Positions 8,532-29,451 of a stretch of 64,000 bases of DNA are shown here, one piece after another. The stretch is from assembly GCA_000091205.1 (NCBI GenBank), contig AP006501.2; one strand, given 5' to 3'. The first letter of the stretch is position 1. Each line of letters opens with the position of its first letter. The notes under the pieces are model-generated. The model searched no databases and was not told the origin of the DNA. It worked only from the letters and a program-made list of their open reading frames with translations. This DNA is from Cyanidioschyzon merolae. Lineage: Eukaryota. A program made the translations under genes and the position numbers.

Positions 8532-9886
8532 ATGCGCTACACCGGATTCAGATAAACATGGAACATTGACCCATCCGCTATGTTCCTTTTCATATGATTT
8601 TTTCTGAGCGATCTTAGATGCACCATTGGCATTCGAGGTGCAGCAGTAGGTGCGTACGGATTCATACGTGGTTTCGGGGCTCCAGCTTGTCTATTCAGTG
8701 TGCCGCTATCGACTAGTTGGTGCTGGAATTTTTTAGTGCGCTGGAATCAAAACATTACGTGTTGCTATCGAATACGGGATCGCAACAGAATACATGTCAC
8801 TGACCAAATCGTATGTACAAGCGTCCGCTCTCCTCCTTTGCTACCGTTTCGTATGCTTCAGTCACACAATCTTCGTGTTTTCCATCTTTCCGTATCACAG
8901 AGGCTCGTGAGTGCGGCTACTCGTACCGCCAGATTGACGCGGATAATACCTCGACAACGCCCCGTAGCGGCCGCTTTGTAAGCGCATCCCCAACAGTCAC
9001 TGAACCTGTCACGTCAAATGATCCTGATCGATTGAACGGCAAATCCGTCTGCCTTCGTGGGCATCGACGGAACTGCATTCACGCTCAGCTTGATCCATCT
9101 CACCGGGCTATGCTGGCAGGGTCTCCCGTCTCTCCTGCTAGAATGTGAGAGCATCGTCGACTAGGGCTTGGGTTAGCGCAGCGATCGCTTCCGGGGCGGC
9201 GAGCGCCTCACCGCTTCTGACCGAGTCAGCGTCGACGCATCGAGAATGCTCGACATCGTGCACCGACCTGGACTTTGCTGCAGATACCTCTATTATCCTG
9301 GATACGATCGCGTTCCGCATACGCTCTATCGAACGGAGCAGCGTGCGCTTTCGAGTGCAGCGGACAGCGTACTTGCCAAGCGTCCGCTCAGGAGTGGAAA
9401 CAGCGGCGGGTTCCATGTCGAACCTCGTTTACTGCGAATAGCACGAACACGGGCAAAGCGTGTAGGCATCACGCGCGATAGGGCGACGCTCGGATGACGA
9501 GGGTGTTTGGCGAACACACGGGAACGACTACCGTTATCCAAGCGTCGCTGCTGCAGCGCACGAATCTATTCTGTATACGAGCAAGATGAGCGCGACGAGG
9601 GAAGCGAAGCTCGTAACGTCCGCCTGGACGTGACCTGCATTGAGCACAGCCAAAAGCAACGAGACCGACACATGAGCGCTGCACTCCATGTCCTTCGACG
9701 AAGGAGAACGCTGCTGGCGTGAGAGGAAACGGAGGCGTATGGAAACACGGAGAGAAGCGAAAGGACCGAGAGGCAGTCGCACCAGAAACCGTAAGGGCTG
9801 GTCTTGACGACGCCCGAGAACACACTTAAACTTTAGCTCGCATACCCGCATAAGAGGTGCATTTTCATACTACGCTGACATGGATG
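8532..9886. repeat. Direct repeat copy 1 (about 1.35 kb); partner at 28117-29451
   Basis: Homology starts at 'cagataaacatggaacattgaccc' (8532 / 28117) and ends at 'gcattttcatactacgct' (9886 / 29451). Embedded ORFs 8700-8981 and 28276-28557 differ at 2 of 93 residues, so the copies are about 98% identical. Confidence 0.85.
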
Positions 9887-10593
9887 TAGAGTGCACCCCG
9901 AATGGAACCATCTGAACGCGCTCCACCTTGTTCTAATTTGGGTGCAGCACACGGGCTCACCACCTGTTCGAGACAAACGTTGCGAATGATCTGCAAGTGC
10001 GGCGCCCTACCAGTGCCTCTACGCATGGAGATTTCCATAGATATTCGAGCAGTTCTTGTAGGGCGCTCTAGCGCCATTACATGGAAAACATTCTGTGCTG
10101 CACACTCGAATCGGTGCCCTGGTTGAAACCAGTCATTCAGGATGCTGGAGCAACAACCATCTCAGCGGACATGGACCGAGCATCCCCGGTTCTAAAAGAA
10201 GCAGTGTTGCAGATCGGTGATACGGCAGGCCTCTCTAGAGAGTACCCAGACAGGCATGTATGAATCTGGGGTATTTTCGAATGCTTTCAGGACGATCATG
10301 ATGATGCGTTGCTTGCTCGGAAGCATCTGCAGCGTACCTGTTTGTGTACCAGCGCACGCGGGTGTGCGCCCTGTGCACCTGCGCAGCGACGTACGTGATT
10401 GTCTACCCAGGCCTCCTTGTCTGTTGTATCGTCACCGACTACTAGACGAGTTGCTGCACATGCGCAGCAGGAGAGAGGTCTCGTCGATGTAACAAGCTGG
10501 TGTGTTGAGCCCTGGTGAGCTGTTCACTGCGTTCTGTCTGGTTTCGTCGGGACTCTTGAACGCCCGGTTCGTCGTTGCTGAGTTTAACCAGCG

Positions 10594-11535
10594 ATGACGT
10601 TGCTGCACTTTAGAGGAAGGCGTCAAGCCGAGACCAGCCGCGCAAGCACCGAGATAAACTCTGAAAACCGCTCGCACTCTTCAACTGGTGGTGCTTTGAA
10701 TCCAAGCGAGGCGAACACAGAGCACGACGAGGTGATGGCGGAGCTTCACGACCTTCTGGTTCGTGAGCTGACCGATTGCGGTCTCATTGACTTGTTTACG
10801 TCGCAAAGCTTGCCTCAGTATGCATCAGAAAAGGATACCCTGACCGATGCAGGGTCAGAGAAGCAGCACAAAGCGACCGAGCTGGGAAACGGCGCCTCGG
10901 GCGGCGTGTTTCAACACTGGACCGGACCCTCGCGGCCTGCACCAGCTGACTTGTTAACCGTAGAGTCGCCACACGGTCGCACGGAGGAGCCAAGCGGTAA
11001 CCGCGGGTCCTTTCAGCGGGACGTACCGCCACTCGAGGACCAAAATGAGCCCATTTCCAGGGCTATGCAGCGCATCCGAGCTGCACTGCGACGCTGGAAA
11101 CCGCTCCACGGCGAGGTCGACCTCGAGACCCTCGAGCGCCTCAAGAACTCGATCGTTGAGCGCTCTGCCTGGTTTTTACGCGAGCAGGCAGAACAACGAG
11201 CCCGCTGGAAGGCAATGCGTCAAAACCCTGCCTATGTCGTTGAAGACTTTACAGCGAACCAGCGAACCTTCTTCTCATGGATTCGGACCAGTTTCCGTAT
11301 GGTCCTTACGGGAGCAGCCATTGGAAAGCTCTTGCACGGAACCAGCGTCATTATTCTCGGGGTACTGTATGCTGCCCTTGGCCTAATCTGCATTGCAGCG
11401 GGCACGATGCATTTTTACCATTGGCAGCGAACATTGTACAATCATCGATATTTGCGGGATTCGCGTCCTTTCATCGTGGTGTTCCTGGGAATCACTGCGA
11501 CCAGTGTCGTCGCTCTAATGGCTTGTTGGAAATAG
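10594..11535 (+). CDS. DUF202-domain membrane protein
   Basis: ATG at 10594 verified. The C-terminus carries the DUF202 signature NQRTFFSWIRTSF followed by hydrophobic helices (MVLTGAAIGKLLHGTSVIILGVLYAALGLICIAAG). Confidence 0.45.
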   Translation: MTLLHFRGRRQAETSRASTEINSENRSHSSTGGALNPSEANTEHDEVMAELHDLLVRELTDCGLIDLFTSQSLPQYASEKDTLTDAGSEKQHKATELGNGASGGVFQHWTGPSRPAPADLLTVESPHGRTEEPSGNRGSFQRDVPPLEDQNEPISRAMQRIRAALRRWKPLHGEVDLETLERLKNSIVERSAWFLREQAEQRARWKAMRQNPAYVVEDFTANQRTFFSWIRTSFRMVLTGAAIGKLLHGTSVIILGVLYAALGLICIAAGTMHFYHWQRTLYNHRYLRDSRPFIVVFLGITATSVVALMACWK

Positions 11536-12042
11536 GTGCCAGCCCGGAGTAAGCGCCGCTGACCGTGACCCGACGCTGCACCACTGAGCGAGCGCATTCT
11601 CTTGTGCACATGCGAATGCGTCGCTATATCCGTATCGTATCGACCTGTATAATACTATCCATGACATTGCAGGCGCACCGCTGCAGCATTGGGCATCTGC
11701 TGACACCCGACTAGGCCAGGTGCGGTGTTGTCTTCAAGTGAATCTGGGTTACCACGGCGGATAAACATGCGAACCTCGACGACATTCCGGATCTGACTTG
11801 TTCCCCTCGCCCGCTCTGTCTACGGATGACGTCAACTCGACCAATGTGCAGCGCTTCTCCGCTCACAACCAGCGATGCTTCAGGCAAAGTCCTTCACCGT
11901 TATGCTCGATGCTGTGCGCATGCGGTTATTGGAAAAGGCGACCCCGATGCTGATACTCTGTTTCGTACATATCTCAGTGCATTGCGCTCTGGTCTGAATC
12001 AACGTCACTGGATATGTTCGTCGGCTTTGCCCAGAGAAACTG

Positions 12043-13326
12043 CTATGAAGCCGTTGGGCTCGACACGGGATCTTCGCTGGCGATGTCCTCGGCCTCGTCC
12101 TCGGAGTCTATTTCATCCGTCGCTGGCCAGATGCTCGGAGGCATATGCTTCATCTGGACAGAGGGAGCACCTTCTAGTTGGCGCAATTGTTCGATAACTT
12201 TGCTCTTCACCTTCTCTAGATAATCTCTCGAATTCTGGTTCTCCAGTTCACGCATTGGTTGAATATGGAGAGAATATTCTGGAGCGAAGTATTCCCAGTA
12301 ATCATTGTATGGAATCTGGGCGTCTACCGATATGCCTAGAAGCACCGAGGTCTCAAAGAGCCAGCAGCGGGCAACGTTTCGGATGTTGTAGCCACCACCG
12401 CCGAGGACCAGCATCGGGATTCGGAACGAACGAACAAAAGCCACCGCATTCGCATGTCCCTGTACCGTCAAGTTAAAGCACCCGAGTCGATCATGGGCCA
12501 GAGAATCCGCGCCACACTGCATCACGATTGCACCCGGTTGATATACTTCGATGACCTTGGTTATTATCGGCTCGAAAATGCGACTGAAACCTGCATCATC
12601 CATGCCGTCTTTCAGGGGCACGTTCACCGCGTATCCTTCACCGCGCCCGTAGCCGCGGTCCCATACATCTCCGGTTCCCGGGAAAAAGTTGTCTCCGTAT
12701 TTGTGGAAGGACACCGTGAGCACTCGATCTGTGGTGTAGAAGGCTTCTTCGACACCATCACCATGATGCACATCAATATCGATGTAGAGCACACGCGGGT
12801 AGAGACGCAGCAGTTCGAGAATTGCCAGTACGATATCGTTCACATAGCAGAAACCGCTCGCTTCACTTTTCTTGGCATGATGAAGACCACCTGCCCAGTT
12901 AATCGCAATATCACTGGTACCCGACATGAGTTTTCTGGCACCGTCGATACTACCGCCGGCAGATACGGCGCAAAAGTCCCAAAGACCGTCAAACAGCGGA
13001 CAGTCGCCGTGTTGTCGTCCGACGTTAAACCGCTGTAGCTGGTCCAAAACGTCGTCGGTTATGGTGTCCGGGGTTGTGTTTCGCAGGAACTCTATATAGT
13101 CGTGGGCGTGGAACTTTTCGCACTCCTCAGGGCTCGCTTTACGAGGCTTGTAGACGTCCATATGGCGATAGAGACCGTACGCGAGACATAGGTTGTGCGT
13201 GATGGCCATTCGGTGCGGTTTCATGGGATGATGCTGTCCATAATAGTAGCCCCCAACATCAAAGTCCATAAAATAGGCCACGCGCAAACGGTCGGTGGAA
13301 CCATACAGAGCCTGGCTCGACAGCAT
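12043..13326 (-). CDS. Class I histone deacetylase (RPD3/HDAC1-like), 427 aa, intronless
   Basis: ATG (plus-strand 'cat' at 13324-13326) verified. Classic HDAC catalytic motifs are present: [44 protein letters not shown], and an acidic C-tail. Confidence 0.9.
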
Positions 13327-13459
13327 GAGTCCAGTGAAGATCGAGACGTTCGCTAGAGCACCGAAAACAAGCGAGGAACCTGAAGCGTCCGGGTGGCTTT
13401 GTATGCACGGATGCTCGAAGCCTAGCTAGCGCACAACTTGGCTGAGGATGCGCACCCCT

Positions 13460-16005
13460 GGAAACAAACGTCTTTCAAAAGAAAAACGTTGCTGCCAGTG
13501 GTACAGTAGTGGCGGCAACCGCACCCTAGCCAAGAAGTCTCCAACTGATGTGCAGACGCCTTCCAGCTTTTTTCGACTGGCCACCCACTACTGCTTCCAA
13601 CTTTTTCCCATATAATTCCACATTCAGAGATGGTTCCATAAAGTTTTCTCTTGTCAGCTCTGGGGGTCTATTCTCCATCAACGCATATTTCCTTATATTG
13701 CTGGCAGCATTAAAGTCTCGGTTCATAAACTCCATACGTTTCGTGCCGTTGGGAGTTGTACTCACTAATGCAAGTAGTCCACGAACTTTCGCGCTCCTTT
13801 CCATTTGCTCTTCCGTCAGCGTACCGTACTTTCTTATAACCTCAGGACTCCGCTGGCACTTTTCCATCTCGACCCTCTGAAGTGTACACCCTAGCTCATG
13901 GTGTGTATAGGACGTTCGAAACTCATCTACAGGTATCGTGACGATACTCCGTGCACACTCTTTGTACGTTCTTGTCGTTGGAGCTGGCGTAGTTCCTTGC
14001 TTGGGTCTTCCGTCACCCTGCTCCGTACGCTACTACGAGTCTCTGACTTTCATCCTCCTTCAAGGCGCTCAGCAGATTGAAAAAGTTCGCGAATGCACGC
14101 TGCTTCCCACAATACAAATTCATTCGCAGTCGAACCCACCGGGGCTTGGTCTACTCTTTCCACAGCGCATACCAGTGAGCAATACGAAGTTCCATGAATT
14201 TCCGAAGAGCCTGAATGTCCGCTCGTCGGCTCGTCACCTCGCTCATAGCTTCCAGATGCTCTTTCATTCTTTCATTCCATGCAGCAATTTTCTTCCTCGC
14301 ATTCATTATACCGGATTCTCGATAGTATCTCGCTCTCGAGAACCTCAAAAGACGCATGTATTTCTGACGTAAGTTACCATCAGTACCATCTTCCGCACGC
14401 TGGGGTACTGCGATGGTTATGTTATTTGTGTTTCCGGGATCCGCGCTGACGACAAAGTCGTTATCTTGCACCTCCTGCGTCGCAGGATCCGCCTCCTTCT
14501 CATCTTCATGCATCGTCGCGCCTGCATCCTTCGTCTCGGGCGCAGCCGAGGGAGGGACTGGACGATCTGTCTTCAACCGCCGATAGTGTATACACAAGGC
14601 TACTCCATCGGTTTCGATCATCTCAGTGAATACCTTTTGTTTGCTGACTTTGAGACGTTTGAAATCGAAGATATTCTTCCAGTATGTCTGCCGGTTTTCA
14701 CCGGAGAATTCCTTCCTGCTAACATCGAAATCAGGACTGATCTCGCTCGTGATGCTGCAAAGACGCCAGAGTCGATAGTCACAAAATGTGACTTGATATT
14801 GTACATTGGAACCACGTTGAAGCGCTTCCCCATTAGGAACGCCTTCCGTCTCTCCCACTCTTCATTTTTTCCTCATTCAGCCTCATCTCTGCCGTGCGTT
14901 CGAGTTCGCGGTCCAAAAACACGAAATACCTCAAGATGAGGAGGTAGTATCTTTCCTTATCTTTTCCAACTCTGATATCTTGTCTGCTGGATTAACCAGC
15001 CCCAGTACCGCACGGTGCTCTTGTATAACCGCACGGATTACAGAAGCTTCATTCGTGCACTAATTCGACGCCTTCTTGTCAACGAACTCGATCTCATCTT
15101 CATGATGGCGATCGTTCGTGATGCAATTGATAATCGCCCATTTTCCTTCGCGAGACAGACCCGGGTGGAGTGCAACCACGGCGCGTATCATGAAACGTTC
15201 GAAGTTCGCTGTCAAATGGTTCTTCAGATTCGTGAGGTACTTCATGGCCCCGTAGCTGTAAATATCCCAGTCACCCTTGTACCGAGTACCCTCGAAGCTG
15301 TAGAAGGAATGTTTTTCGTGGAGGGCATGCACTAGCACATTTTCCCTCCGCGCTTTCTCTGTACCAAGCATCAGGTGAGGAATAAAGGTCTTGTCGAAGA
15401 ACTCGCCCGGAATCTCGACCTTTTCCATGTGCGTCCCGTCGCGATACATCTCTCTCACCAAATGCATCAGTCCTGACGACGCCTTGACAATATTCTTCGA
15501 GTACGACGCAACACGTTTTTCGATAGCTTCTCGCAACTTTTCCCTGTACGGATCCTTGATCTGTCCAAGAAGAAAGGTTTTCACCACCATCTCGTCGCAC
15601 AGTTGTCTTTCTTGCCGCTTTCGACGTAGGGCCTCCCCCGTTTTTGCGTTTTCTTCTTATCCTGCTCTTCTGGAATCGGCACTGTTTTTTGTTTTTTTTC
15701 TGGCACCCGGCGACACTGGGCCTCCAGGATCGTAGACTTGCTTTTTCATAGCTTTCCTTTTTTAGTTTTTTTTGAGAAAGAACGCTCTTTGAACTCTTCT
15801 GTTATATACTGCGAAAAAAACACTTGATTAGACTTGTTCGAAGTTTGAAACACAATTGAAATGAAAAACTGTACTTGGCTATGAAGTTAACGAAAATACA
15901 ACTTTTACATTAGATCTACATGCTAGAGATCAGGATCACGTTCCCCTTCAACAACGGCATGTGCGTAGCGTCTCATGCCTGCCTGATCTCCGAGGTGCAC
16001 TCACC
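13460..16005. repeat. Left arm of the large inverted repeat (about 2.55 kb); partner at 20268-22870
   Basis: The reverse complement of the left arm aligns with the right arm. The ORF trios 15060-15590 / 14151-14858 / 13526-13867 (-) and 20696-21226 / 21428-22192 / 22476-22658 (+) are near-identical. The inner boundary matches at 'atcgcgctcggtgagtgcacctcggagatcaggcaggcatgaga'. The outer ends are diverged but still alignable to about 13460 and 22870. Confidence 0.85.
13526..15590 (-). CDS. TnpB/Fanzor-like RuvC nuclease (OMEGA-type RNA-guided endonuclease candidate), left copy, in three ORF blocks: 15590-15060 (helical N-terminal part), 14858-14151 (RuvC-I region), 13867-13526 (RuvC-III region). 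The gaps are introns or shared frameshifts.
   Basis: ATG at 15590 verified ([19 protein letters not shown]...). Block 2 carries the RuvC-I-like ...[19 protein letters not shown], with the Asp codon at 14439-14441. Block 3 carries the diagnostic RuvC-III ...[19 protein letters not shown], with the Asp codon at 13715-13717 (D-x-NAA-x-NI as in TnpB, Fanzor and Cas12). Block 2 starts at GTG, so it is not an independent gene. The frame upstream of block 3 stays open ([22 protein letters not shown]...), suggesting a +1 frameshift or intron junction near 14013-14029. Confidence 0.6.
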
Positions 16006-16599
16006 GAGCGCGATGCAAACTAGTCACAAATTATTTATTAAAGAACAACTATCTTAAAAGCCCCATACAGCACGCGCGCCTATGGGGTCTAGTTTTTCCG
16101 AAGAAGCTCTGAAAGTGGGTTAAACCGGGGTGCTTGGGCGACGACGAAGGAAGCCCACGCCAGGGACCATGACCGCAACGAACGGAGGGGCGGAGGCAGT
16201 GGCAGCAGAAAATATTGACGAGAGTTCTGAGTAGTTATCCGCTGCTCCCGAAACAACGCTGCAGGTTCCGGCGCAAATCCTGGATCCATCCTCGAACTCG
16301 GGCTACGTTTTACCTCCCACCTTGAGCACCTACCTCAACTTTGGAAACACTCTCGGCGGATACTTCGGAAGGCGGCTATCGATATGCTCGTGGTCGAAGC
16401 TGGAATAAGCGACTTACCCGCCTATGTGTTTGGGGAACGGATACGTAACCGCTGAACGGGTGCTTTGCAGACTGTTCCCAATGGTTGAGGGTAGCTTCAC
16501 GCGTCCGGCAAGATAAAGTTCGCATTCGAATCGACCTTGACTAATGTACTTCTGATTCTACGCTAGCGCTGCGGCAGACACTCAATGAACGACTGGAAT

Positions 16600-19500
16600 G
16601 CAGGAGGCGCTGGTGGCATGTGCTCTCACACACCTTGTGGAGGGTGCATCTAAATGGACGACGCATCTCTCGAGTACCGCAGCGTTACTCCTATACCCTT
16701 ATGCGCTACGACTCGATAGGTTTCGCATCATGGAATATTTGCGGTGTGGCCTCGATACTAGACGACGAGATATCGAATTACCAGTACAGTAATGAAGAAC
16801 TGATACAAGTCGAGGACTGTACAATAGGAAAAGAGACCCAACCAGACACGGAGAAGGAGACACAGAAACCTCATGATCCACCTAGATGCAAAATAACCAG
16901 AGAAAGTAGCTCAGGAAAGAGCCCGAAGAAGAAAAAGACCAGCAAGAAATAAACAGAAGAATAGAAAAAAGAACTCCCAAATGAGCCCATCACAAGGTAT
17001 CCCCCGAGAGGGCACCCCAGCTGGAACTCAAGAAAGCCGTCGCCAAACCCAGGCACCTACTCACAGCGCTGAAGATCCGAAAAGCCGTGCATACAAATTT
17101 TTTGACCAATTGACACGCGAGTTTGTAGATGGGAATCAGAAGATTGCCAGAGAGCTGGGACTGCTTGCACCAGAACGCAACAGTTGCAAACCTCGGTACC
17201 TGAAACGACGTACCAAAACTCGGATTGATGAATGCTACCGAGTCTATAAGATCGTCAACCGCACCGCCATACACGCCAACGCCGGAGACAAAGAAGCGAA
17301 GGCAGCGCTACCGGCGCTACAGGCGCAACATGAAGAAGCTATCAAAAGAAAGAAGAAACTTTCCAGAGAAGACAAACGAGAGGATCGAAACCGCAGAATC
17401 GCCTCCCTGGCGAAATCTATGCTGGAGAGCACCAACGAAGATGAGATCTGGCGCTACATTCGATCGAGACTCGACCCACCAAAAAAGTGCTTGGGGCTCA
17501 CACCAACTCTGTATAAGGAAGAGCTGAGGACGGAGCGTGCCTCAGTGAATGAGGCCTGGACAGACCACTGGACAGAGCTGCATGAAGAAGCAACTGGACA
17601 CTGCTAAGACCCAATCTATTGGCACCAATATGCTGCAGAACTACCGCGCCTCGACCCGGTACCGGAATGGAACGACCCAATCTTCTGGCCTGAATCTGTC
17701 CGGACTCTGCTATGCTCAAGCAACCGCAAAACACCTGGCTTTGACGGTATCCCTACGGAGTGGATGAAACTGGTGATCCCAAAAGACGGGACAACAGGGA
17801 CACCATCGATACCAGATGAACCTGACAGAATCTTAGGCAAGCGCCTTCTGGAGCTCATCCAACGCATGTTCGAAGAAGCGTACATCCCAGATGTATGGAG
17901 GACTGCCGAGGTCGTATCGATCCTCAAAAAGGACTCCGAACCCCACAGACATGAATATCTACCGGACTATGCGCCTCATCCCGTCAATCATGAAGCTACT
18001 TTGCGCCAACCTCACGAACCGGACTCAGAGGGGCCTTGAGGAACGCAACTTCCTCGCCCCAGAGCAGGCTGGATTCCGGAGCCGCGAGGAGTGCATGAGC
18101 CATGACCTGACCTTCATTGAAGTGGTGCAACGTCGCTCCATTAGCTGCCAACAACCAACTTACGTATGCTTCATCGACTTTCAAAAGGCCTTTGACACGG
18201 TCCCGCACGAGGCTCCATTTCTGAAGATGGAACGTGCCAGAGTCTCCGGAAAGTGCTTAGCGTTCTTCCGTGCGCTCTATGCAGACTCGTGGATGTGCAC
18301 CCGACTGGGCGACTGCTCAAGAACCCCTTCGATAAGAATCCGCCGTGGACTGCGACAGGGCGACCGCGCATCCCCGCGCCTTTTCAACATCTTCATCAAC
18401 GATCTGCTGAACAACTGCAGACAATACGGGCTTCAGGTGTCGTGGATAGACTGTGGAGAACCCGGTGAGGAGCGCCTACATAGAAACCGCCTCGCAGGCC
18501 TTCTACTTGCGGACGATGTCGTGCTGTTGGCACCCGCCCCGGAAACGCTTGCGGCTAGCATGCAACAAGTCAGCGCCTGGGCCGATCGCTGGGTTATGAA
18601 CATAGGAGCATCGAAGTGCGGCGCCATGGTCATCCTTGGAGACTCGCAGCGCATTCGCAATCGCTCGTGGCGGTTGCAGAATCAGGAAATTCCGATCGTG
18701 GAAAAATATCGCTACCTGGGGGTCTGTCTCACGCCGACGCTCGACGAAAAGGCACAAGTCGACGAGATGATCGCCAAGATGCATAGACGTACAGAGATCG
18801 CACGTCCATTCTTATCCGACCCCTCTATCTGCATAGCAATCCGTACGAGGGCACTAAGGATGTGTATCATCCAGCCTTCGACCTGGGGTGCTGAATGGTG
18901 CGGCATGAAGCACACAAATGCCTCGCGTCTGCATACAGCCGCCAACAGGGCAATGCGACTCGTTGGTGTTGGATGCTCAGTGCAGCGCAGAGCGACCAAC
19001 CCGCTGGCACTCGGACTTGAACTCCAAATAGCCTCGATAGAAGCGATAGCAGCAGGCTGCCGGGCATGTATACGGGCCAAAGGGCCCACTATGCGCACCT
19101 CCTTGAGTCGGATTTTCATGCAGACCCCAACGCACCGCTAGAACACTTGGATGAAATCAGCGCAGATTTGGCTGAAGCGCCTCTTACGCGAAAACACGCT
19201 ACCCAATCGTTCCCCAGGAATGTAGAAGACTTCAGACGCCTCAAGCGAACGGTCCAAACAACAATATGGGAAGGTAGACACGGTACCAGTCGCGCTAGTA
19301 ACGCCGGCTTGACTCTATATCGGAACTACAACCTAGCATACACATGCAAGTACTGGTGGGAGGCGCTGGAATTCCCGGGACTTGCTCGCGGTACCCTGTG
19401 GCTTGCCAAAATCCGTGTTAGTGGCATCTGGCTACCAGCACCGGCTCTAAGCCGTACGGGAACACTGGAACCGCACTGGGAGTCACACTGTCCCTGCTAT

Positions 19501-19700
19501 CGAGACGAAATCCCCGAGACGCTGACATATTTAAGCTTACAGTGCCCGCGCTCGAAGCAGGAGCGCAGCGAGCTCCTTGAAGGACAGCAGGAGCTCGGCA
19601 TCACCGTGATAGTCGAAGGCCGGACACTCACTCTGAGTGTAGCACTGGCAACTGATGGTCCGCTAACGGAGCCTCAGCGCTCATGAGTGGCGAAGAAACT
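16600..19700 (+). mobile_element. Degenerate non-LTR (LINE-like) retrotransposon remnant at the centre of the palindrome
   Basis: RT motifs are split across frames. IPDVWRTAEVVSILKKDSEP (in ORF 17764-18039) is followed, after a frameshift, by YRTMRLIPSIMKLL...FIDFQKAFDTVPHE...RGLRQGDRASPRLFNIFINDL...LLADDVVLLA (in ORF 17891-19141). The C-terminal ORF 19066-19686 carries a Cys/His motif, HCPCYRDEIPETLTYLSLQCP. The upstream ORF 16981-17607 is K/R/E-rich. No APE endonuclease domain or poly(A) tail is seen. Confidence 0.7.
17764..19141 (+). pseudogene. Reverse transcriptase (non-LTR type), frameshifted
   Basis: RT domains 0-7 are recognisable but distributed over two overlapping frames, with the frameshift near 17900-18040. 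Confidence 0.7.
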
Positions 19701-20267
19701 CACATGCTACCTTCTAGGCAGCAGGTCCAACGAATCGGATGAGCACACGGGTTTAGTGCTCTTTGTGCCTACCCACTGTGGTGGGTGTCAAGCACAAACC
19801 CGCATTGCCAACCGACAACACATTCAATGCATGATCACGAAGGAAAGAGGCGGCTCGCACGATATATCCTAACAGCCAAGTTTCTCCAGCGTGTCGTGCA
19901 GCGAAGACAAGCCTGCATCCGCAGACTGTCCGAGCACAAACTGACGACGAGACCCGATTCTACTTCGGTTGAACCACGCCTCGAGCCGACGCGCTCTGGG
20001 GTATAGAAAAGCTGCTCTAGCTCGATGAACTATCTGCTCCAGCATTTAAGGTCCAAAGGCGGATACGGAAAGGCAGGTACTAGGCACACACGATAGGACG
20101 TATGAAACGACCAGAGTATCCGAGGTGAAGTATAGGTACTGTAGCTTGGAGGCAGGCTGTTTGATGGATACCTAACCGCGCACTGAAAAAAATAACATAA
20201 AAAAGTAAGAAAAGAAAAAGCGCACAATTGGAAAATGCTGGCACAAGTAAACGTCTTGTCCATGAAA

Positions 20268-22870
20268 AAAAGAATCGCGCTCGGTGAGTGCACCTCGGAG
20301 ATCAGGCAGGCATGAGACAAGACGCGCGTGCCGTTTTTGAAGGGAAACGCGATCCTGATCAGTAGCGTGTTGTTCTGCTGTAAAAGTCGGATTCCCGTTC
20401 AGATCATAGCAAAGTATAGTTTTCATTTCAATTGTGTTTCAAACTTCGAACAAGTCTAATCAAGTGTTTTTTTCGCAGTATATAACAGAAGAGTTCAAAG
20501 AGCGTTCTTTCTCAAAAAAACTAAAAAAGGAAAGCTATGAAAAAGCAAGTCTACGATCCTGGAGGCCCAGTGTCGCCGACTGCCAGAAAAAAAACAAAAA
20601 ACAGTGCCGATTCCAGAAGAGCAGGATAAGAAGAAAACGCAAAAACGGGGGAGGCCCTACGTCGAAAGCGGCAAGAAAGACAACTGTGCGACGAGATGGT
20701 GGTGAAAACCTTTCTTCTTGGACAGATCAAGGATCCGTACAGGGAAAAGTTGCGAGAAGCTATCGAAAAACGTGTTGCGTCGTACTCGAAGAATATTGTC
20801 AAGGCGTCGTCAGGACTGATGCATTTGGTGAGAGAGATGTATCGCGACGGGACGCACATGGAAAAGGTCGAGATTCCGGGCGAGTTCTTCGACAAGACCT
20901 TTATTCCTCACCTGATGCTTGGTACAGAGAAAGCGCGGAGGGAAAATGTGCTAGTGCATGCCCTCCACGAAAAACATTCCTTCTACAGCTTCGAGGGTAC
21001 TCGGTACAAGGGTGACTGGGATATTTACAGCTATGGGGCGATGAAGTACCTCGCGAACCTGAAGAACCATTTGACAGCGAACTTCGAACGTTTCATGATA
21101 CGCACCGTGGTTGCACTCTACCCGGGTCTGTCTCGCGAAGGAAAATGGGCGATTATCAATTGCATCACGAACGATCGCCATCATGAAGATGAGATCGAGT
21201 TCGTTGACAAGAAGGCGTCGAATTAGTGCACGAATGAAGCTTCTGTAATCCGTGCGGTTATACAAGAGCACCGTGCGGTACTGGGGCTGGTTAATCCAGC
21301 AGACAAGATATCAGAGTTGGAAAAGATAAGGAAAGATACTACCTCCTCATCTTGAGGTATTTCGTGTTTTTGGACCGCGAACTCGAACGCACGGCAGAGA
21401 TGAGGCTGAATGAGGAAAAAATGAAGAGTGGGAGAGACGGAAGGCGTTCCTAATGGGGAAGCGCTTCAACGTGGTTCCAATGTACAATATCAAGTCACAT
21501 TTTGTGACTATCGACTCTGGCGTCTTTGCAGCATCACGAGCGAGATCAGTCCTGATTTCGATGTTAGCAGGAAGGAATTCTCCGGTGAAAACCGGCAGAC
21601 ATACTGGAAGAATATCTTCGATTTCAAACGTCTCAAAGTCAGCAAACAAAAGGTATTCACTGAGATGATCGAAACCGATGGAGTAGCCTTGTGTATACAC
21701 TATCGGCGGTTGAAGACAGATCGTCCAGTCCCTCCCTCGGCTGCGCCCGAGACGAAGGATGCAGATGAGCAGAAGGCGGATCCTGAGACGCAGGAGGTGC
21801 AAGATAACGACCTTGTCGTTGGCGCGACGATGCATGAAGATGAGAAGGAGGCGGATCCTGCGACGCAGGAGGTGCAAGATAACGACTTTGTCGTCAGCGC
21901 GGATCCCGGAAACACAAATAACATAACCATCGCAGTACCCCAGCGTGCGGAAGATGGTACTGATGGTAACTTACGTCAGAAATACATGCGTCTTTTGAGG
22001 TTCTCGAGAGCGAGATACTATCGAGAATCCGGTATAATGAATGCGAGGAAGAAAATTGCTGCATGGAATGAAAGAATGAAAGAGCATCTGGAAGCTATGA
22101 GCGAGGTGACGAGCCGACGAGCGGACATTCAGGCTCTTCGGAAATTCATGGAACTTCGTATTGCTCACTGGTATGCGCTGTGGAAAGAGTAGACCAAGCC
22201 CCGGTGGGTTCGACTGCGAATGAATTTGTATTGTGGGAAGCAGCGTGCATTCGCGAACTTTTTCAATCTGCTGAGCGCCTTGAAGGAGGATGAAAGTCAG
22301 AGACTCGTAGTAGCGTACGGAGCAGGGTGACGGAAGACCCAAGCAAGGAACTACGCCAGCTCCAACGACAAGAACGTACAAAGAGTGTGCACGGAGTATC
22401 GTCACGATACCTGTAGATGAGTTTCGAACGTCCTATACACACCATGAGCTAGGGTGTACACTTCAGAGGGTCGAGATGGAAAAGTGCCAGCGGAGTCCTG
22501 AGGTTATAAGAAAGTACGGTACGCTGACGGAAGAGCAAATGGAAAGGAGCGCGAAAGTTCGTGGACTACTTGCATTAGTGAGTACAACTCCCAACGGCAC
22601 GAAACGTATGGAGTTTATGAACCGAGATTTTAATGCCCCTATCAATATAAGGAAATGAGCGGTGCTGGAGGAAAGACCCCCAGAGTAGACAATAGAAAAC
22701 CTTTTTGGACAACCTCTCAAAGTCGAACTATATGAGATAAAGTTGGAACCAGTATTAGGTGGCCGATCCAAAAAGGCTGGAAGGCGTCTGCACATCAGCT
22801 GGAGGCGTTTCGTCTAGGGCGCGTTCGCCGGCACGACTGTACACGGCCGCCGGCTGTGCGTCACGTGGAG
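20268..22870. repeat. Right arm of the large inverted repeat
   Basis: See the left arm. Relative to the left arm, the right arm carries a 57-bp in-frame tandem duplication at about 21761-21900 and indels after the RuvC-III motif. Confidence 0.85.
20696..22658 (+). CDS. TnpB/Fanzor-like RuvC nuclease, right copy, in blocks 20696-21226, 21428-22192 and 22476-22658; the C-terminus is frameshifted relative to the left copy
   Basis: ATG at 20696 verified. Block 1 differs from the left copy at 3 of 176 residues. RuvC-I Asp codon is at 21902-21904 (SADPGNTNN). RuvC-III Asp codon is at 22626-22628 ([11 protein letters not shown]). The ORF stops right after the motif, whereas the left copy continues about 50 aa; the equivalent residues ([12 protein letters not shown]) appear in another frame at about 22770-22810. 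Confidence 0.55.
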
Positions 22871-22953
22871 CCGCGAGCGGCGGGCTTCTACCAAGTGCCG
22901 CTTGTACCAAACGCACTTGCACCTCGTGTGGACACAGACGCATACCTGAGTGC

Positions 22954-25875
22954 ATGGCCGATTCTGGAGATGAAACGGAGTGGGAACTTGCTGCCGAGAA
23001 GTTTGTAGCGACTGTTGCACCGAAAGAAACTACTCCGTCTCGGGGGAGGCCCTCGAGTCGGGCGACGCGCTCGCCGTTGCGCGAGGCTCCGCCCGAGGCC
23101 GCGCCCAACGCGGGAGCCGGCACTGCAGGCCGACCTGGACGCAGTGCGGGCAGCTCGGGGCCCTCGGAACCCACCGCAGACACCACCACAGGCACCACAC
23201 GCGTCGCTCGAGGTGCCCAACCGAAACCTGCAGGCAAGCCGAGCGGCGTGGGTGGAAACAGAGGGAGCGACGTGGCTGCGGCCCCGTCTCAGGTTATTCA
23301 GGTTTTGCGTTTCAGCAGTGATGCGTCGCTCACAGCAACCGTTCGGGGGAGTCAAGCAAACCAGCAGGCGCTCTGGGATCGGGCGCGATCGGCGTTCGAG
23401 TCGGCGCTGCGTCGGAACGCAACACGACTGGAGCTCGATGCGCTGGCAGCGGCCCTGCAGACTGTAGGCGTCGACATCTCTCTTGGTCGAAACGCAGGCA
23501 CACGCGGCGGCGGACCTGCAACGAACGGGCCCACTGACGGCAGCGGTGGACGGCGTTCGGGAGCCGCTGCGGGCGGCACGGCGTCGCGAACTCCGCAGCC
23601 AGCGCTCACGCGAGGCCGCAACGCCTGGACCCCCTCGTTTCTGACCAAAACTGCGGATACGTCCGCTACAGAGGGGGAGAATCTGGTCAATTCCTCTCGA
23701 CGAAAAGCAAAAGCTATACTGAACAAACTCGTACCGGAGAAGTTCGTCACGCTAGCGCAGCAGATTCTTGATATGCCGCTCCATCATTACGACGTACTGG
23801 AAGCGGTGATTTCAGAAATCTTTGATAAAGCGCTTGCGGAGCCGTATTTTTGTGGAGTCTACGCAGATCTGTGTGAAGTTTTGAACCGCGCGCTTCCGAG
23901 CATCGCGATCGAGAGTGCTTCGGGGACCAAACAAACCAACTTTCGCAAAATGCTTCTCGCGCGCTGCCAAGCTGAGTTTGTGCAGCGCGCCCTAGCCTCG
24001 GAAGAGCGCGCAACAGACGAGCAGGAACTTGAGGTTTGCGCCCACAACCGACGCCGCACGCTAGGAAATACAATTTTCGTGGGTGAGCTCTTCAAGCGGC
24101 ATCTGCTGAGCGAAAAAATCATTCATGAGTGTGTACAGATGCTGCTGAAAGAGGGCGAGAACGAAGATAGCATCGAAACGCTTGCCAAGTTGCTCTCCGT
24201 CGCCGGCAGCAGCATGGATCGCCCTGAGGCTCGGTCCTACATGGACGCCTACTTTACCAAGATCGAAGAAATGGCAAACAACGCACAAATTCGAGCTCGT
24301 TATCGGTTTATGCTCAAGGATTGCGTTGAGCTGCGTAAGCAGAAATGGAAGCCGCGACGAGCCCAAGAACGGCCAGCGACACTGGATGAGATTCACGGGA
24401 AAAAGTCCGGCCGTGCCGCTCGGCAAGCGAGTCAGTCGCTGGCACGCAAAGCTGCTCAGCTGCGCTTCACGGGAGCTGATGCAGAGGCGCCCAAGCCGGA
24501 GGCGGAATCCACAGTTCCAGCAGGGCAAGTGTCCGCGTCTGCCACTGTCCAGGGTCGTGTTGAGAACGCCCGTAACCAGAACGTTGCCGGCGAGACGGTC
24601 ACGGACGCTGCACACGCCAAGTCGGAGTCGGGACCGGTCCCCGATCGGACTGTCGTTTGGACCGAAAACCCTGAACTATTGCGGACGTATATTCGTGGTA
24701 TCATTGAAGACTACGTGGTGAATCCGTATCCGGCAGAGGTACAGGTGGCGCTCACCGAGTCCGGACTTGCCGCACAGCCTGACCTGCTGGCTTTGGCTGG
24801 CGTTCAGGAACTCTTCTCCATGGTCTGCAGTGCGCGCGGGCATGAACGGCAGCCGCTTGTTCGATCCTTTGGAGATGCCTTCCAGCATGTACTTTCTAGG
24901 GAGAAGCTGCTCGAGGCTCTTGTATCGATTACGTCCAATTTGCTTACCTTCGAAGACGAGCTTGATATGCCTACAGCAGGCAAAGTTCTCGGCGAGTTTC
25001 TCGGGACGTTATGCACTAGCCACTGCGCTACGTTCTTACACGACGCTGCTGATATTCATACAGTACTGGCAGCGGTTCCGCCTAATAGACAGGCATCCGT
25101 GCTGCGTTCCTTCTTGGAAACGCTCTTCCGACAGTATCCTTCAGATATGCGAGAGCGCTTCGGCGCTTCCCTGCGAGCACTACGTCCGCTTTTCGTGTCG
25201 CTCCCGCAAACGGAACAGCGCGAACTCGAAGAGCTACTTGCAAAATATGAACTGCTTGAGCTCGTTCCCGAATGGCAGCTCCGACGCCAGCTCCAATACT
25301 ATCTGGAACCTGGAAAGGAGCGTATCGCAGATGCAGCAGACTGGTTGCGAAGCTTCCTGCCCAGAGTGCGGGAAACGCTACGCTCCGAGGACGCAACAGC
25401 ATCCACTGCAAAGTCCAGTCTGAACGAATGGTACGCCTTTTGTCGATTCACTGCGGACCATATCCTATCAACTTATGTCATGGAAGCGCAATCGAGTAGT
25501 ACGATGGATATCATGCGGCGACTACGCCTGATGGTGCCGCTTCTTCGTGAAACAGCCGGAAACATGCCCGCGACCGATGAAACCGACGACGACGACGACG
25601 ACAGTGACCCCGCGGAAGACAAGGAGTGGCGTCAAGCCCAAGTGGCTTTTGCAGTGCAAGCAGGTTGTTATCGTTTGGACTTTCCCACTGATCTCATAAG
25701 CGGCATGTTCCAGGTGCTGTACGACGCGGATGTGATCTCAGAGGAGGCATTCGATCGCTGGCGGGAAGATGTACACGATACGACACCAGGAAAGCTCAAG
25801 GCGCTATTTCATGTGAATGCTTTTCTGAATTGGCTCAAGGAGACTGATGAAGAACCGGAGAAATCCGATGTGTAA
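22954..25875 (+). CDS. eIF4G-like translation initiation factor (MIF4G domain plus C-terminal W2 domain)
   Basis: MIF4G core: KAKAILNKLVPEKFVTLAQQILDMP...VISEIFDKALAEPYFCGVYADLCEVL...TIFVGELFKRHLL. W2-like C-terminus: FQVLYDADVISEEAFDRWRED. The track start 22759 is a GTG inside the inverted-repeat/Fanzor tail. The first ATG, at 22954, is used here, and the true start may lie further downstream. Confidence 0.75.
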   Translation: MADSGDETEWELAAEKFVATVAPKETTPSRGRPSSRATRSPLREAPPEAAPNAGAGTAGRPGRSAGSSGPSEPTADTTTGTTRVARGAQPKPAGKPSGVGGNRGSDVAAAPSQVIQVLRFSSDASLTATVRGSQANQQALWDRARSAFESALRRNATRLELDALAAALQTVGVDISLGRNAGTRGGGPATNGPTDGSGGRRSGAAAGGTASRTPQPALTRGRNAWTPSFLTKTADTSATEGENLVNSSRRKAKAILNKLVPEKFVTLAQQILDMPLHHYDVLEAVISEIFDKALAEPYFCGVYADLCEVLNRALPSIAIESASGTKQTNFRKMLLARCQAEFVQRALASEERATDEQELEVCAHNRRRTLGNTIFVGELFKRHLLSEKIIHECVQMLLKEGENEDSIETLAKLLSVAGSSMDRPEARSYMDAYFTKIEEMANNAQIRARYRFMLKDCVELRKQKWKPRRAQERPATLDEIHGKKSGRAARQASQSLARKAAQLRFTGADAEAPKPEAESTVPAGQVSASATVQGRVENARNQNVAGETVTDAAHAKSESGPVPDRTVVWTENPELLRTYIRGIIEDYVVNPYPAEVQVALTESGLAAQPDLLALAGVQELFSMVCSARGHERQPLVRSFGDAFQHVLSREKLLEALVSITSNLLTFEDELDMPTAGKVLGEFLGTLCTSHCATFLHDAADIHTVLAAVPPNRQASVLRSFLETLFRQYPSDMRERFGASLRALRPLFVSLPQTEQRELEELLAKYELLELVPEWQLRRQLQYYLEPGKERIADAADWLRSFLPRVRETLRSEDATASTAKSSLNEWYAFCRFTADHILSTYVMEAQSSSTMDIMRRLRLMVPLLRETAGNMPATDETDDDDDDSDPAEDKEWRQAQVAFAVQAGCYRLDFPTDLISGMFQVLYDADVISEEAFDRWREDVHDTTPGKLKALFHVNAFLNWLKETDEEPEKSDV

Positions 25876-26297
25876 AAGCGACGCGATGCTAGCGCTCCAG
25901 TGCAACGTCCCGAAACTCGATGGCGCTTCGGTCCAATGCGTCCTGGATGAACGCACCCGTTCGTCGTGCCGCGGAGCCTGCTGTCCGATGGATGCGGTAT
26001 ATCGAAGATCCCGCATCACCGCGCTGCACGAGGGGTTATGCGAATATACGCTTCATTGCAGAGTCGCGAATATGGTCATTCTGAAACTTGCTGTTTGCTC
26101 CGCCACTGGGACCCGATCAACCGCAGTGCTCGGGTTTCGACGCCAGTCACAGAAGACGCCTGTTGAACATTCGCTGGATGCAGCCGGTCTGCGATGTGAA
26201 ACGACACCCATGCGTTCGCGTACGCATACATCTATAACATACCTCCCGTCCGGTCGACGCCTCGAGAGCTCGGTCGTAAGTCATGCAAACCGTACGT

Positions 26298-26890
26298 TTA
26301 TGCCGTGGATATGACCTGAGCAATAACGAGCTCGACATCGCCGTCACAGATCGCTTGCTTCACCAGTCCTCCGTACGAACGCAACAGAGGTACTTGAGCG
26401 TCGCTTTTCCCGTCGATCGTATCCCGCCACGGGCGATCATCGAGGATACTCAAGACCCAGTTAAGTTCTGCTGTCATCGCAGGCCCATCACGCTGACTAT
26501 CGTAACAACCCTGCAGACTCTCGATGAGGAAAGCTTCACCAGCGGCGAAAAGCTCCTCTTCAGCCGATGCTGCCTTTGCTGCTGTCTCGTTGTTCGCGTG
26601 ATAGGCATAGCGCTGAAAGCGGATCCCGCGCAAGTGACCGGAGCAGCCCAAGACCACTGCTGCGTCAAGCTGTCGACCTGTAAGAATCTTCCGCACAGCA
26701 GTCATGAGCTCGGATCCCGAGCGTACCCGTGAAACGTACATGCGGCTGTTGCTCTGATCGTCTGGAACGGCCATTCCGAAAGCTACACGAATACCGGGTA
26801 CTGCGACTTGCGTCCCGTGATCTAACAAGCCTACTTGCACGGCGTGCGCTTCGAGTTCGTCTACAACAGGTCCATCGTTTGGCGCTGAAC

Positions 26891-26936
<46 letters not shown>

Positions 26937-27599
26937 TTCGGCGCTGGACGGCATCCGGTCCGGCTGCGTTTCTCCTGGTTCCTCGGCGGCCGCTGCCTTA
27001 CTGCCTCGCGTGTGTGTTCCTTCTTCGCTGATGCTCCTTCGTTCAGGACGGAGATGTCCACTGGCAAACAGGAAGAAACGATCTCCAAGAGACCGTCGTC
27101 GACCACCCTGAATGTAGGACACAACAACCGGTTGTTGATAGCGGCTGCCGTGCGCTGTGCACCAGTCTGCTGCCTCGATAACAAACGGCTGGAATGCGTT
27201 TGCTCCTTCTAAAGTGAACGCAAGCCGATTCTGTTCTTGAGATGGGTGGGCGCGTTCTGCTTCCCATGCCTTCCACTGGGACTCGCCAACCACGTGCTCG
27301 AGACGCTGGGGCGCGTCATAGGTTCGGCACTCCTGCTGAATACCAAGGCGCTGATGGAACTCATCCAGGATGGCCTCTGGCGTCTCTGGACGCGGCTCGA
27401 GCGGTTTCCGAACTCGACCGCACGTCACCACGCCGTAGCTTGACACCGTAAACGCCATAGGGAGTGAAGCGGAGTTCATAAACTCCACGAGGCCGTTGAG
27501 CAAGTCGACACCAGGCTCCAACACGCAAAATAGAATGCGCAACGGGAGTGAACTCGGAGGGCGTACCGAGACGCGCGCTTTTGATGTTGGTGCGTCCAT
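26298..27599 (-). CDS. Hypothetical protein with two PPC/DUF296-like modules and an internal poly-Ala tract
   Basis: ATG at 27599 verified. Two similar blocks (RILFCVLEPGVDLLNGLVEFMNSASLPMAFTVSSYGVVTCGRV and RMYVSRVRSGSELMTAVRKILTGRQLDAAVVLGCSGHLRGIRF) resemble the PPC domain pattern. The poly-Ala tract is encoded by (GCT/GCA)n at about 26886-26935. Confidence 0.4.
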
Positions 27600-28116
27600 G
27601 TTTGCAGGCTAGCACCAGTGTGTCCCTGGGTCGCTCGAAACGAGAACCAACGCACCGTGCGTGTGTTCGTCGAACGAGCAGTCTCTGGTGGTAGCGACGA
27701 GTGAATGCGGAGTGTTCAAGAGAGTTCCTCACGATCAGCAGAGTGACTCGAGAGGCACGTACCAAAGAATAGAGTTAATCGGTTCCCTGGCCTGTCTACG
27801 AGGGGACGCAAAGGCGTCCTTGGGGTTGTTCTACGAAAACGACTCGTTCCACCTGCGCAGCGCACTTGAATGGACTCCACCAGTGGTGAAACTTTGACAC
27901 CTGTAAACCAACCTGGGTCCAACGGGCCTCTCTTCGCGCTATCACCGTACCCATCGAAAAGCAACGCTCAACAGTGGTGCGCAGTACATTGCAAGTGGCT
28001 GTCAGTCGAATGCTCTGGAGAGAAACATCTCCTCGTTCCGTCGGGATTGTGCGGTGCGGTGCGGTGCGGTGCGCGTGGAGCGGCGTCACGATAGCAGGAA
28101 GGAGGATTATGTTGAC

Positions 28117-29451
28117 GTTTAGCTCAGATAAACATGGAACATTGACCCATCCGCTATGTTCCTTTTCATATGATTTTTTCTGAGCGATCTTAGATGCACC
28201 ATTGGCATTCGAGGTGCAGCAGTAGGTGCGTACGGATTCATACGTGGTTTCGGGGCTCCAGCTTGTCTATTCAGTGTGCCGCTATCGACTAGTTGGTGCT
28301 GGAATTTTTTAGTGCGCTGGAATCAAAACATTACGTGTTGCTATCGAATACGGGATCGCAACAGAATACATGTCACTGACCAAATCGTATGTACAAGCGT
28401 CCGCTCTCCTCCTTTGCTACCGTTTCGTATGCTTCAGTCACGCAATCTTCGTGTTTTCCATTTTTCCGTATCACAGAGGCTCGTGAGTGCGGCTACTCGT
28501 ACCGCCAGATTGACGCGGATAATACCTCGACAACGCCCCGTAGCGGCCGCTTTGTAAGCGCATCCCCAACAGTCACTGAACCTGTCACGTCAAATGATCC
28601 TGATCGATTGAACGGCAAATCCGTCTGCCTTCGTGGGCATCGACGGAACTGCATTCACGCTCAGCTTGATCCATCTCACCGGGCTATGCTGGCAGGGTCT
28701 CCCGTCTCTCCTGCTAGAATGTGAGAGCATCGTCGACTAGGGCTTGGGTTAGCGCAGCGATCGCTTCCGGGGCGGCGAGCGCCTCACCGCTTCTGACCGA
28801 GTCAGCGTCGACGGATCGAGAATGCTCGACATTGTGCACCGACCTGGACTTTGCTGCAGATACCTCTATTATCCTGGATACGATCGCGTTCCGCATACGC
28901 TCTATCGAACGGAGCAGCGTGCGCTTTCGAGTGCAGCGGACAGCGTACTTGCCAAGCGTCCGCTCAGGAGTGGAAACAGCGGCGGGTTCCATGTCGAACC
29001 TCGTTTACTGCGAATAGCACGTACACGGGCAAAGCGTGTAGGCATCACGCGCGATAGGGCGACGCTCGGATGACGAGGGTGTTTGGCGAACACACGGGAA
29101 CGACTACCGTTATCCAAGCGTCGCTGCTGCAGCGCACGAATCTATTCTGTATATGAGCAAGATGAGCGCGACGAGGGAAGCGAAGCTCGTAACGTCCGCC
29201 TGTACGTGACCTGCAGTGAGCACAGCCAAAAGCAACGAGACCGACACATGAGCGCTGCACTCCATGTCCTTCGACGAAGGAGAACGCGGCTGGCGTGAGA
29301 GGAAACGGAGGCATATGGAAACACGGAGAGAAGCGAAAGGACCGAGAGGCAGTCGCACCAGAAACCGTAAGGGCTGGTCTTGACGACGCCCGAGAACACA
29401 CTTAAACTTTAGCTCGCATACCCGCATAAGAGGTGCATTTTCATACTACGC
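28117..29451. repeat. Direct repeat copy 2
   Basis: Near-identical to 8532-9886. Confidence 0.85.

Follow-up and report, generated by a model that had tools for sequence, protein, structure and literature searches.

Two near-identical non-coding repeats and their diverged relatives on chromosome 19 of Cyanidioschyzon merolae 10D

Cyanidioschyzon merolae 10D has been described as having almost no transposons (0.7%) and one interspersed repeat family. Two repeats known from this genome, CMe-1A and TE-N2_CMe, have no terminal inverted repeats (TIRs), their target-site duplications (TSDs) could not be determined, and they were left as unclassified interspersed repeats by Bao & Jurka in 2013 (PMC3627910). 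The first 635 bp of CMe-1A are 95% identical to the entire TE-N2_CMe, a separate repeat (PMC3627910). Copies of CMe-1A are about 80% identical to the consensus (PMC3627910), and so about 65% identical pairwise. This report concerns a stretch of 64,000 nucleotides (the window) from contig AP006501.2 of C. merolae, in which two near-identical direct repeats, here called R, lie on either side of a row of genes that includes a histone deacetylase gene (HDAC) and an eIF4G-like gene. The explanation that we favor, and consider reasonably probable, is that R is an old, non-coding, non-autonomous and unclassified interspersed repeat, and that two separately inserted copies stand around ancestral genes and exchange sequence by gene conversion.

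R resembles CMe-1A and TE-N2_CMe in several ways. All of them come from the same genome, are discrete, have no TIR or TSD, lie between genes and have old, diverged copies; the pairwise identity calculated above for CMe-1A is comparable to the 52-69% found within the R family. R is also short and non-coding, as is TE-N2_CMe, but, unlike CMe-1A, it carries no Fanzor open reading frame (ORF). R can be set beside the TE-N repeats because it is likewise TIR-less, TSD-less, old and unclassified, but it does not belong to them by sequence. When R and the profile of its family were compared by blastn and nhmmer with the 3169-bp CMe-1A consensus (PMC3627910, Additional file 2), the first 635 bp included, nothing meaningful was found apart from a trivial nhmmer match. 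R was therefore rejected as a member of CMe-1A or TE-N2_CMe, since it has no sequence similarity to the consensus. One 9-mer, ACATTGACC, is common to R and CMe-1A near their 5' ends (p ~0.03), but this match involves the 5' end only and is weak and not robust.

A more speculative idea, to which we give little credence, is that R and its relatives, TE-N2_CMe and the Fanzor module of CMe-1A represent modules of one class of TIR-less and TSD-less eukaryotic mobile DNA, perhaps serviced by the Fanzor1 system. If this were true, the R pair would be the latest movement of that class in C. merolae, kept as a gene-converting pair by the essential genes between the copies.

The R pair and its family

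The pair was measured by blastn of the window against itself and by a base-by-base alignment of the boundaries. The two copies are 1329 bp each and co-oriented, with 10 mismatches and no gaps (99.25% identity), and they are 19.6 kb apart on chromosome 19 (coordinates in Table 1). Identity between the flanks is random within one base of either end. The initial annotation recognized the co-oriented, near-identical direct repeats, as self-blastn bears out; its estimate of about 98% identity was slightly low, and the ends it gave (8532-9886 and 28117-29451) are 7-16 nt off, except for the last one, which is 29451 rather than 29452. The R termini are TCAGAT...CTACGCT. The adjoining bases are T on the left and G on the right of copy 1, and C and A at copy 2, and the flanks of the two copies have no common target motif on the left or on the right. 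A (GTGCG)5 tract is present at 28049-28073, 50 bp upstream of R copy 2.

At ordinary blastn stringency R matches its partner only. However, a sensitive search of the window with R (blastn with +1/-1 scoring and word size 7), followed by a MAFFT alignment (A1) and an nhmmer profile, revealed three additional members, which we refer to as C3, C4 and C5. R matches these three with 77-119 bits, as compared to 32.6 bits for the best of 100 dinucleotide shuffles of R, and the old copies also match one another with up to 206 bits. The five copies are all intergenic, are collinear and align over their whole length in A1. Their global identity is 52-60%, local segments reach 58-69%, and the conservation is diffuse, without sharply conserved blocks. 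The family profile detects exactly these five copies in the window and none in 5.4 kb of extra flanking sequence. The sensitive self-comparison of 42 kb of DNA from the relative Cyanidiococcus gave zero matches, and therefore the method is not merely detecting composition. The profile also detected no copies in the syntenic loci of three relatives, one of them Cyanidiococcus, where non-coding homology is not expected at 43-52% protein identity. R belongs to a family that is dispersed and diverged, and the three further members agree with one suggestion of the initial annotation, namely a dispersed repeat family recruited on both sides of the genes.

The ends of the family members are informative. 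In the alignment, base 1 of R is matched by the 5' end of C3 (41633), and the sequence upstream of this end is unrelated. At the other end, the homology of the old copies fades 50-75 nt before the 3' end of R and never continues past the R end. Because the 5' end is shared with C3 and no homology extends past the 3' end of R, the young duplication copied the family unit alone; mobile elements behave in this way, and it is the strongest point against a random segmental copy. As the R ends coincide with the family ends, R presumably spread as a defined unit by transposition and not by random duplication.

A scan for TSDs that allowed 6 nt of boundary slack in either direction produced only chance 3-4-mers at inconsistent offsets, so the edges of the repeats, where the initial annotation suggested looking for such duplications, have no consistent one. 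The best terminal inverted match in R is 7 nt with a mismatch; thus, the absence of a terminal-repeat structure noted in the initial annotation holds with regard to TIRs. A TIR DNA transposon or a miniature inverted-repeat transposable element was rejected because R has no TIR and no fixed-length TSD. Two potential hairpins were also evaluated. The one at the 5' end of R (GGAACAT/ATGTTCC) falls short of significance (z -1.75) and is not preserved in C3. The 3' end has no hairpin, and its last 80 nt fold no better than shuffled sequences (z +1.5). An element like IS200/IS605 or IS607 was rejected because R has no significant subterminal hairpins and no common flank motif.

The R copies have some features of long terminal repeats (LTRs), in that they are kilobase-sized, co-oriented direct repeats without ORFs. 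However, R has no TG...CA termini and no 4-6-bp TSD, and the interior consists of syntenic host genes in ancestral order and not gag/pol; consequently, both an LTR pair and a solo LTR were rejected. C. merolae has no reported LTR elements (PMC1955436). A reverse-transcriptase remnant does lie between the R copies, where it is a separate insertion inside a palindrome formed by CMe-1A. This remnant (16015-20273) has no similarity to R, and R has neither an A-rich tail nor a TSD; hence, a short interspersed element or another retroposon mobilized by a long interspersed element (LINE) was rejected as well.

Non-autonomous Helitrons are also kilobase-sized and non-coding and have no TIR or TSD; in addition, 5'-TC is the start of both R and C3, and a CTAG lies near the 3' end in C3 and C4. 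Unlike Helitrons, however, R ends in CTACGCT and not in CTRR, there is no 3' subterminal hairpin and the flanks are not A|T. To our knowledge, C. merolae has no RepHel partner. A Helitron was rejected because only the 5'-TC of R and C3 agrees (the starts of C4 and C5 are unclear), whereas the 3' end, the hairpin and the A|T insertion do not.

Probable sequence exchange between the R copies

Within 10D the divergence between the R copies is 0.75%. Orthologous copies from different strains are at least as divergent, although the duplication is older than the separation of the strains. Some of the variable sites display an informative pattern. For example, at positions 8683, 8732 and 9077 one allele is common to both R copies in 10D and in the older Yellowstone assemblies, and the alternative allele occupies both R copies in the 33000503xx assemblies; the one exception is a copy-2 contig (L018), which retains the 10D allele at 8732. 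Likewise, a rare three-site haplotype (9782/9821/9823) is present in copy 1 of contigs L004 and L005 and in copy 2 of L019. Because strain-specific alleles are common to both paralogues, the R copies appear to exchange sequence by ectopic gene conversion, and therefore their 99% identity does not date the duplication. At the three sites first mentioned both copies agree within a strain group, and this makes the argument independent of short-read phasing. One contig (L034, JGI24721J44947_10058632; window 8548-11652) has a copy-2 single-nucleotide polymorphism (SNP; A at base 14 of R) and then the right flank of copy 1, a mosaic that is consistent with either gene conversion or a graph path that mixed the copies.

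The initial annotation viewed the pair as a substrate for recombination that would delete or circularize the block between the copies, and this prediction has indirect support. Besides the shared alleles, one contig (L021; JGI 3300057245, Ga0506609_001143) joins window positions 5406-9876 to 29453-30993, so that a single R unit stands between the left flank of copy 1 and the right flank of copy 2, exactly as in the predicted deletion product, and its SNPs switch from copy-1-like to copy-2-like inside R. Eleven contigs extend through R into both flanks, and L021 is one of them; a repeat of 1.3 kb is too long for short-read assembly to bridge, and L021 is at least as likely to be a chimeric path as to be a genuine deletion allele from a diploid population. 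Among the recovered contigs, none had a circle junction. Pop-out between direct repeats through homologous recombination has been shown in experiments with C. merolae 10D (PMC13353863), and therefore the R pair is a plausible recombination substrate.

These observations resemble the concerted evolution of dispersed repeats, such as yeast Ty LTRs and duplicated genes. Here too, strain-specific alleles are common to two 1.3-kb repeats of the same chromosome, and C. merolae has efficient homologous recombination, including direct-repeat pop-out (PMC13353863). The difference is that the evidence for R comes from short-read contigs and that the crossover product is represented by a single and possibly chimeric contig, L021.

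Explanations for the R pair

We propose the following scenario. Two copies of the R subfamily would have inserted in two different spacers when the genes between them were already in place, and the three much older relatives occupy three further spacers downstream. Gene conversion without crossover would keep the R copies about 99% identical. A crossover between them would delete HDAC and eIF4G, and such deletion products would presumably be removed by selection in haploids; selection against deletion would be the reason that the R pair has not collapsed.

Several observations weigh against this scenario. No hallmark of transposition was found (TSD, TIR, hairpin, poly(A) or an associated transposase), and therefore the proposed mobility is based only on the discrete shared ends and the dispersed copies. 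There are only two young copies and they are close together on one chromosome, which also fits local copying that did not involve a transposon; furthermore, the family is known from this window alone, out of a 16.5-Mb genome. With regard to gene conversion, SNP phasing across 1.3 kb is unreliable in short-read assemblies, and part of the mosaic could be assembly chimerism. The 0.75% divergence between the paralogues would also fit a duplication just before the split of 10D and the Yellowstone strains, with no conversion at all.

Local copying is the alternative that survives best, and we regard it as unlikely but worth serious consideration. It would mean that double-strand-break repair or template switching copied an old, dead member to another spacer 19.6 kb away. 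This explanation would account for the two young copies being the only ones and being co-oriented on the same chromosome arm, and also for the absence of a TSD and a TIR. The other members are very old (52-60% global identity), so the family looks long inactive, and the CMe-1A palindrome between the R copies indicates that old repeats have undergone secondary duplication locally (94.7% identity between its arms versus 83-85% to the consensus). However, the copied segment begins exactly at the point where homology within the family sets in (R base 1 in the alignment with C3) and ends 50-75 nt from where it fades, with no flanking DNA co-duplicated, and a random repair copy would rarely respect both ends.

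It is improbable, and clearly more so than local copying, that R is a functional cis element or RNA gene (for example, a promoter or leader, a boundary element or the transcript of the annotated gene CMS065C) that was duplicated for use. Promoter activity had been proposed in the initial annotation. Three of the five family members precede co-oriented gene starts, namely R copy 1 (717 bp before the plus-strand DUF202 gene), R copy 2 (452 bp before the plus-strand methyltransferase gene, ATG at 29905) and C5 (93 bp). The ORF in R copy 1 is annotated as a gene in 10D, and all five copies are fixed in every strain sampled. However, what follows C3 and C4 is the 3' ends of convergent genes and not gene starts, and the relatives manage with spacers of 480-627 bp that have no R. 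In addition, the diffuse conservation among the family members is not what a functional element would lead one to expect.

The divergence between strains also argues against a function. When 10D is compared with the Yellowstone strains, the divergence of R copy 1 is 0.7-1.35%, as opposed to 0.3-1.25% for the flanking spacers and 0.1-0.6% for neighboring coding sequence. The values for C3-C5, which are present in all ten strain loci, are 0.41-0.68%, versus 0.28-0.94% for other spacers. Thus, the divergence equals that of neutral spacers, and there is no sign of purifying selection on any family member, which suggests neutral-like evolution. With three of five members upstream of a co-oriented start and units that evolve like neutral intergenic DNA, the proposal of promoter activity is unsupported, although the two young copies may have such activity.

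A coding function was rejected because no reading frame is preferred and there is no third-position bias. Six-frame tblastn among the family members gave equally weak results in all frames, and the 31 polymorphic sites in R have no third-position bias in any ORF, most of them being nonsynonymous. A phmmer search with a 118-codon ORF of R against 1.8 billion representatives, as a proxy for family copies with called ORFs, produced no matches, which is uninformative. The statement in the initial annotation that the repeats contain no recognizable ORF is therefore correct in the sense that R has no coding signal, yet a 92-codon ORF in copy 1 is annotated in 10D as CMS065C. The three polymorphisms in this ORF are all nonsynonymous and lie outside third codon positions, and the corresponding ORF of R copy 2 has no annotation in 10D. 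For these reasons, CMS065C is probably a spurious gene model, that is, an annotation artefact.

R was also rejected as a structured non-coding RNA, because there is no Rfam match and consensus fold energies are near zero. At E<=1 over positions 8000-30500, Rfam has no match inside R and one chance match outside it, and a tRNA scan found none. The folds were evaluated over alignment A1 by a column-shuffle z-scan, the power of which is limited with four diverged sequences. Exogenous DNA was rejected too, as exact 23-25-mers of R have no match in IMG/VR viral contigs, prokaryote genomes, plasmids or phages.

The initial annotation also suggested a recent segmental event, and a related possibility is a composite element, in which the repeats would be the LTR-like ends of an 18-21-kb unit that was moved or duplicated whole. 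Direct, near-identical repeats with genes in the interior would fit such a unit. However, among the named relatives with contiguous genomes the closest is Cyanidiococcus yangmingshanensis (locus L026), whose DUF202 protein shares 50% identity with that of the window. In this species the large ORF, DUF202, HDAC (minus strand), eIF4G, PCC (minus strand), methyltransferase and ubiquitin-domain (minus strand) genes follow one another in the same order as in the window. The gene order in a second relative (L027) agrees. Hence, the interior genes and both outer neighbors keep their order outside C. merolae. The spacer that holds R copy 1 is 2405 bp in the window and 480 bp in L026, the spacer that holds R copy 2 is about 2300 bp and 627 bp, respectively, and R is absent from both in L026. 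The HDAC-eIF4G spacer, which holds the palindrome, is 9.4 kb in the window versus 1.1 kb in Cyanidiococcus. Between 10D and Cyanidiococcus stands a further Cyanidioschyzon lineage, with an HDAC that is 90% identical (P0008).

Because the same gene order exists without R in Cyanidiococcus, the 18-kb block is ancestral; it was neither moved nor duplicated and it is not cargo. Three spacers of a conserved gene row each gained one insertion (R, the palindrome and R), and this rules out one large element with the R pair as its LTRs. The left flank of copy 1 and the right flank of copy 2 do not share a TSD, TG...CA termini are absent, and C. merolae has no known LTR elements (PMC1955436). A segmental event is therefore very improbable, as only the two 1.33-kb units are lineage-specific. 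The gene content that the initial annotation listed between the repeats (DUF202, HDAC, the palindrome, the eIF4G-like gene and a PPC-like gene, which encodes the PCC-domain protein) was confirmed by Pfam.

Finally, faulty assembly, for example a contig end that was collapsed or duplicated, can be dismissed almost completely as the source of the pair: short-read assemblies do break at or inside R, but each of the four junctions was recovered more than once, from different samples that had been assembled independently, the R copies differ at 10 positions and the 10D genome is a finished, telomere-to-telomere assembly (PMC1955436), so the artefact contemplated in the initial annotation is contradicted.

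The R pair is real, since all four junctions between R and its flanks recur in hot-spring metagenome and Logan contigs. The junctions were reproduced in more than 30 contigs, which are 98.6-99.6% identical to the window, and both R copies are fixed at both sites in every strain sampled. The breaks in the short-read assemblies often result in stand-alone contigs of 1329 or 1315 bp (for example, L013-L016 and L025); the 1315-bp form is due to a SNP that in some Yellowstone strains changes base 14 of R copy 2 from G to A. A look-up with the methyltransferase protein returned only contigs that break at the R edge, and exact-protein look-ups for the PCC protein, DUF202 and HAT1 gave no matches. Every R context obtained from ORF look-ups and from a 25-mer scan of metagenomes was copy 1 or copy 2, so only two young copies were found.

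These results add a second, cryptic family to the one interspersed repeat family described in C. merolae. The new family, which was compared with the CMe-1A consensus, is non-coding and highly diverged, occupies five spacers in 45 kb and is invisible at ordinary BLAST stringency. No new mechanism is demonstrated; the value is for annotation, where CMS065C should be flagged, and for the assembly of strain genomes, where the R pair breaks assemblies and can create chimeric joins. Caution is also warranted in the design of homologous-recombination constructs near the R locus. Finally, with HDAC and eIF4G bracketed by its two copies, the R pair is a natural system in which ectopic gene conversion can be weighed against lethal pop-out.

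Features of the locus and the Fanzor palindrome

Table 1. Positions of the R family, the neighboring genes and the palindrome arms in the window
Feature	Position	Strand	Description and evidence
R copy 1	8548..9876	+	Spacer between large ORF 5013-8189 and DUF202; self-blastn, boundary alignment, both junctions in many independent assemblies
R copy 2	28124..29452	+	Divergent spacer between CMS074C (PCC domain, minus strand) and methyltransferase gene; junctions in L010, L017-L019, L032, L033, L035
C3, old family member	40546-41650	-	~300-bp internal deletion relative to R; blastn E=6e-28, A1, nhmmer; fixed in 10 strain loci
C4, old family member	46661-47871	+	Sensitive blastn, A1, nhmmer; present in ten strain loci
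C5, old family member	52386-53778	+	blastn E=8e-29, A1, nhmmer; present in ten strain loci; upstream of HAT1 gene
Bracketed interval	9877..28123		18.2 kb: DUF202, HDAC, CMe-1A palindrome with reverse-transcriptase remnant, eIF4G, CMS074C; Pfam and synteny
ORF CYME_CMS065C	9138..9416	-	92 codons, inside R copy 1; hypothetical protein in 10D; exact match BAM82709.1
DUF202 gene	10594-11535	+	Pfam
HDAC gene	12043-13326	-	Pfam
Palindrome arm A, CMe-1A Fanzor1 element	13469..16012	-	CMe-1A consensus positions 648-3169, 85% identity
Palindrome arm B, same CMe-1A portion inverted	20276..22854	+	83% identity to CMe-1A consensus
eIF4G-like gene	22954-25875	+	MIF4G and W2 domains; Pfam
PCC-domain gene CMS074C	26298-27599	-	Pfam
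Methyltransferase gene	starts 29905	+	Directly after R copy 2
10D GenBank entries BAM82708-BAM82723	Window proteins		HDAC, eIF4G, CMS074C, methyltransferase, AP-3 mu-like and CMS065C letter-for-letter identical

The large ORF upstream of R copy 1 has a shorter gene model in 10D (BAM82708.1), which is in the same 90% cluster.

The palindrome between HDAC and eIF4G was detected by self-blastn as a 2.5-kb inverted repeat (13501-16014 and 20274-22842) around the reverse-transcriptase remnant. The arms have Fanzor RuvC and zinc-finger (TnpB/Fanzor) motifs in frame-shifted ORFs, and the Fanzor ORF is split over three frames. The arms are closer to each other (94.7% identity) than to the CMe-1A consensus (83-85%), and therefore they represent a local inverted duplication of one old copy and not two insertions. 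Both arms start at consensus position 648, the boundary of the separately mobile 5' 635-bp TE-N2_CMe module, which is absent from the arms. A TE-N2_CMe-like fragment is present just inside arm B (19708-20168, minus strand; CMe-1A positions 70-534, 63% identity). It has the orientation of arm A and adjoins the A-rich 3' end of the reverse-transcriptase remnant.

In one Yellowstone assembly (L002, positions 1-1502, equivalent to window 13501-15019) the arm next to HDAC is 96.8% identical to the window with many indels, as compared to about 99% for the flanks. The palindrome may thus be structurally polymorphic between strains. A 75-bp duplication at 21751-21901 is present in arm B only.

Other repeats also occur in the window. 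A relic of CMe-1A at 36885-37287, in the SRR1-aconitase spacer, is internally deleted (positions 901-969 and 2904-3084) and weakly similar to the arm ends. A 95-bp tandem unit is present in about three copies at 51779-52085, just upstream of C5, and a 112-bp tandem unit in two copies at 58030-58248. The divergence between 10D, an Italian strain, and the Yellowstone hot-spring populations over positions 34149-54544 is 0.0-0.9%, spacers included (L042-L051), which is strikingly low across continents.

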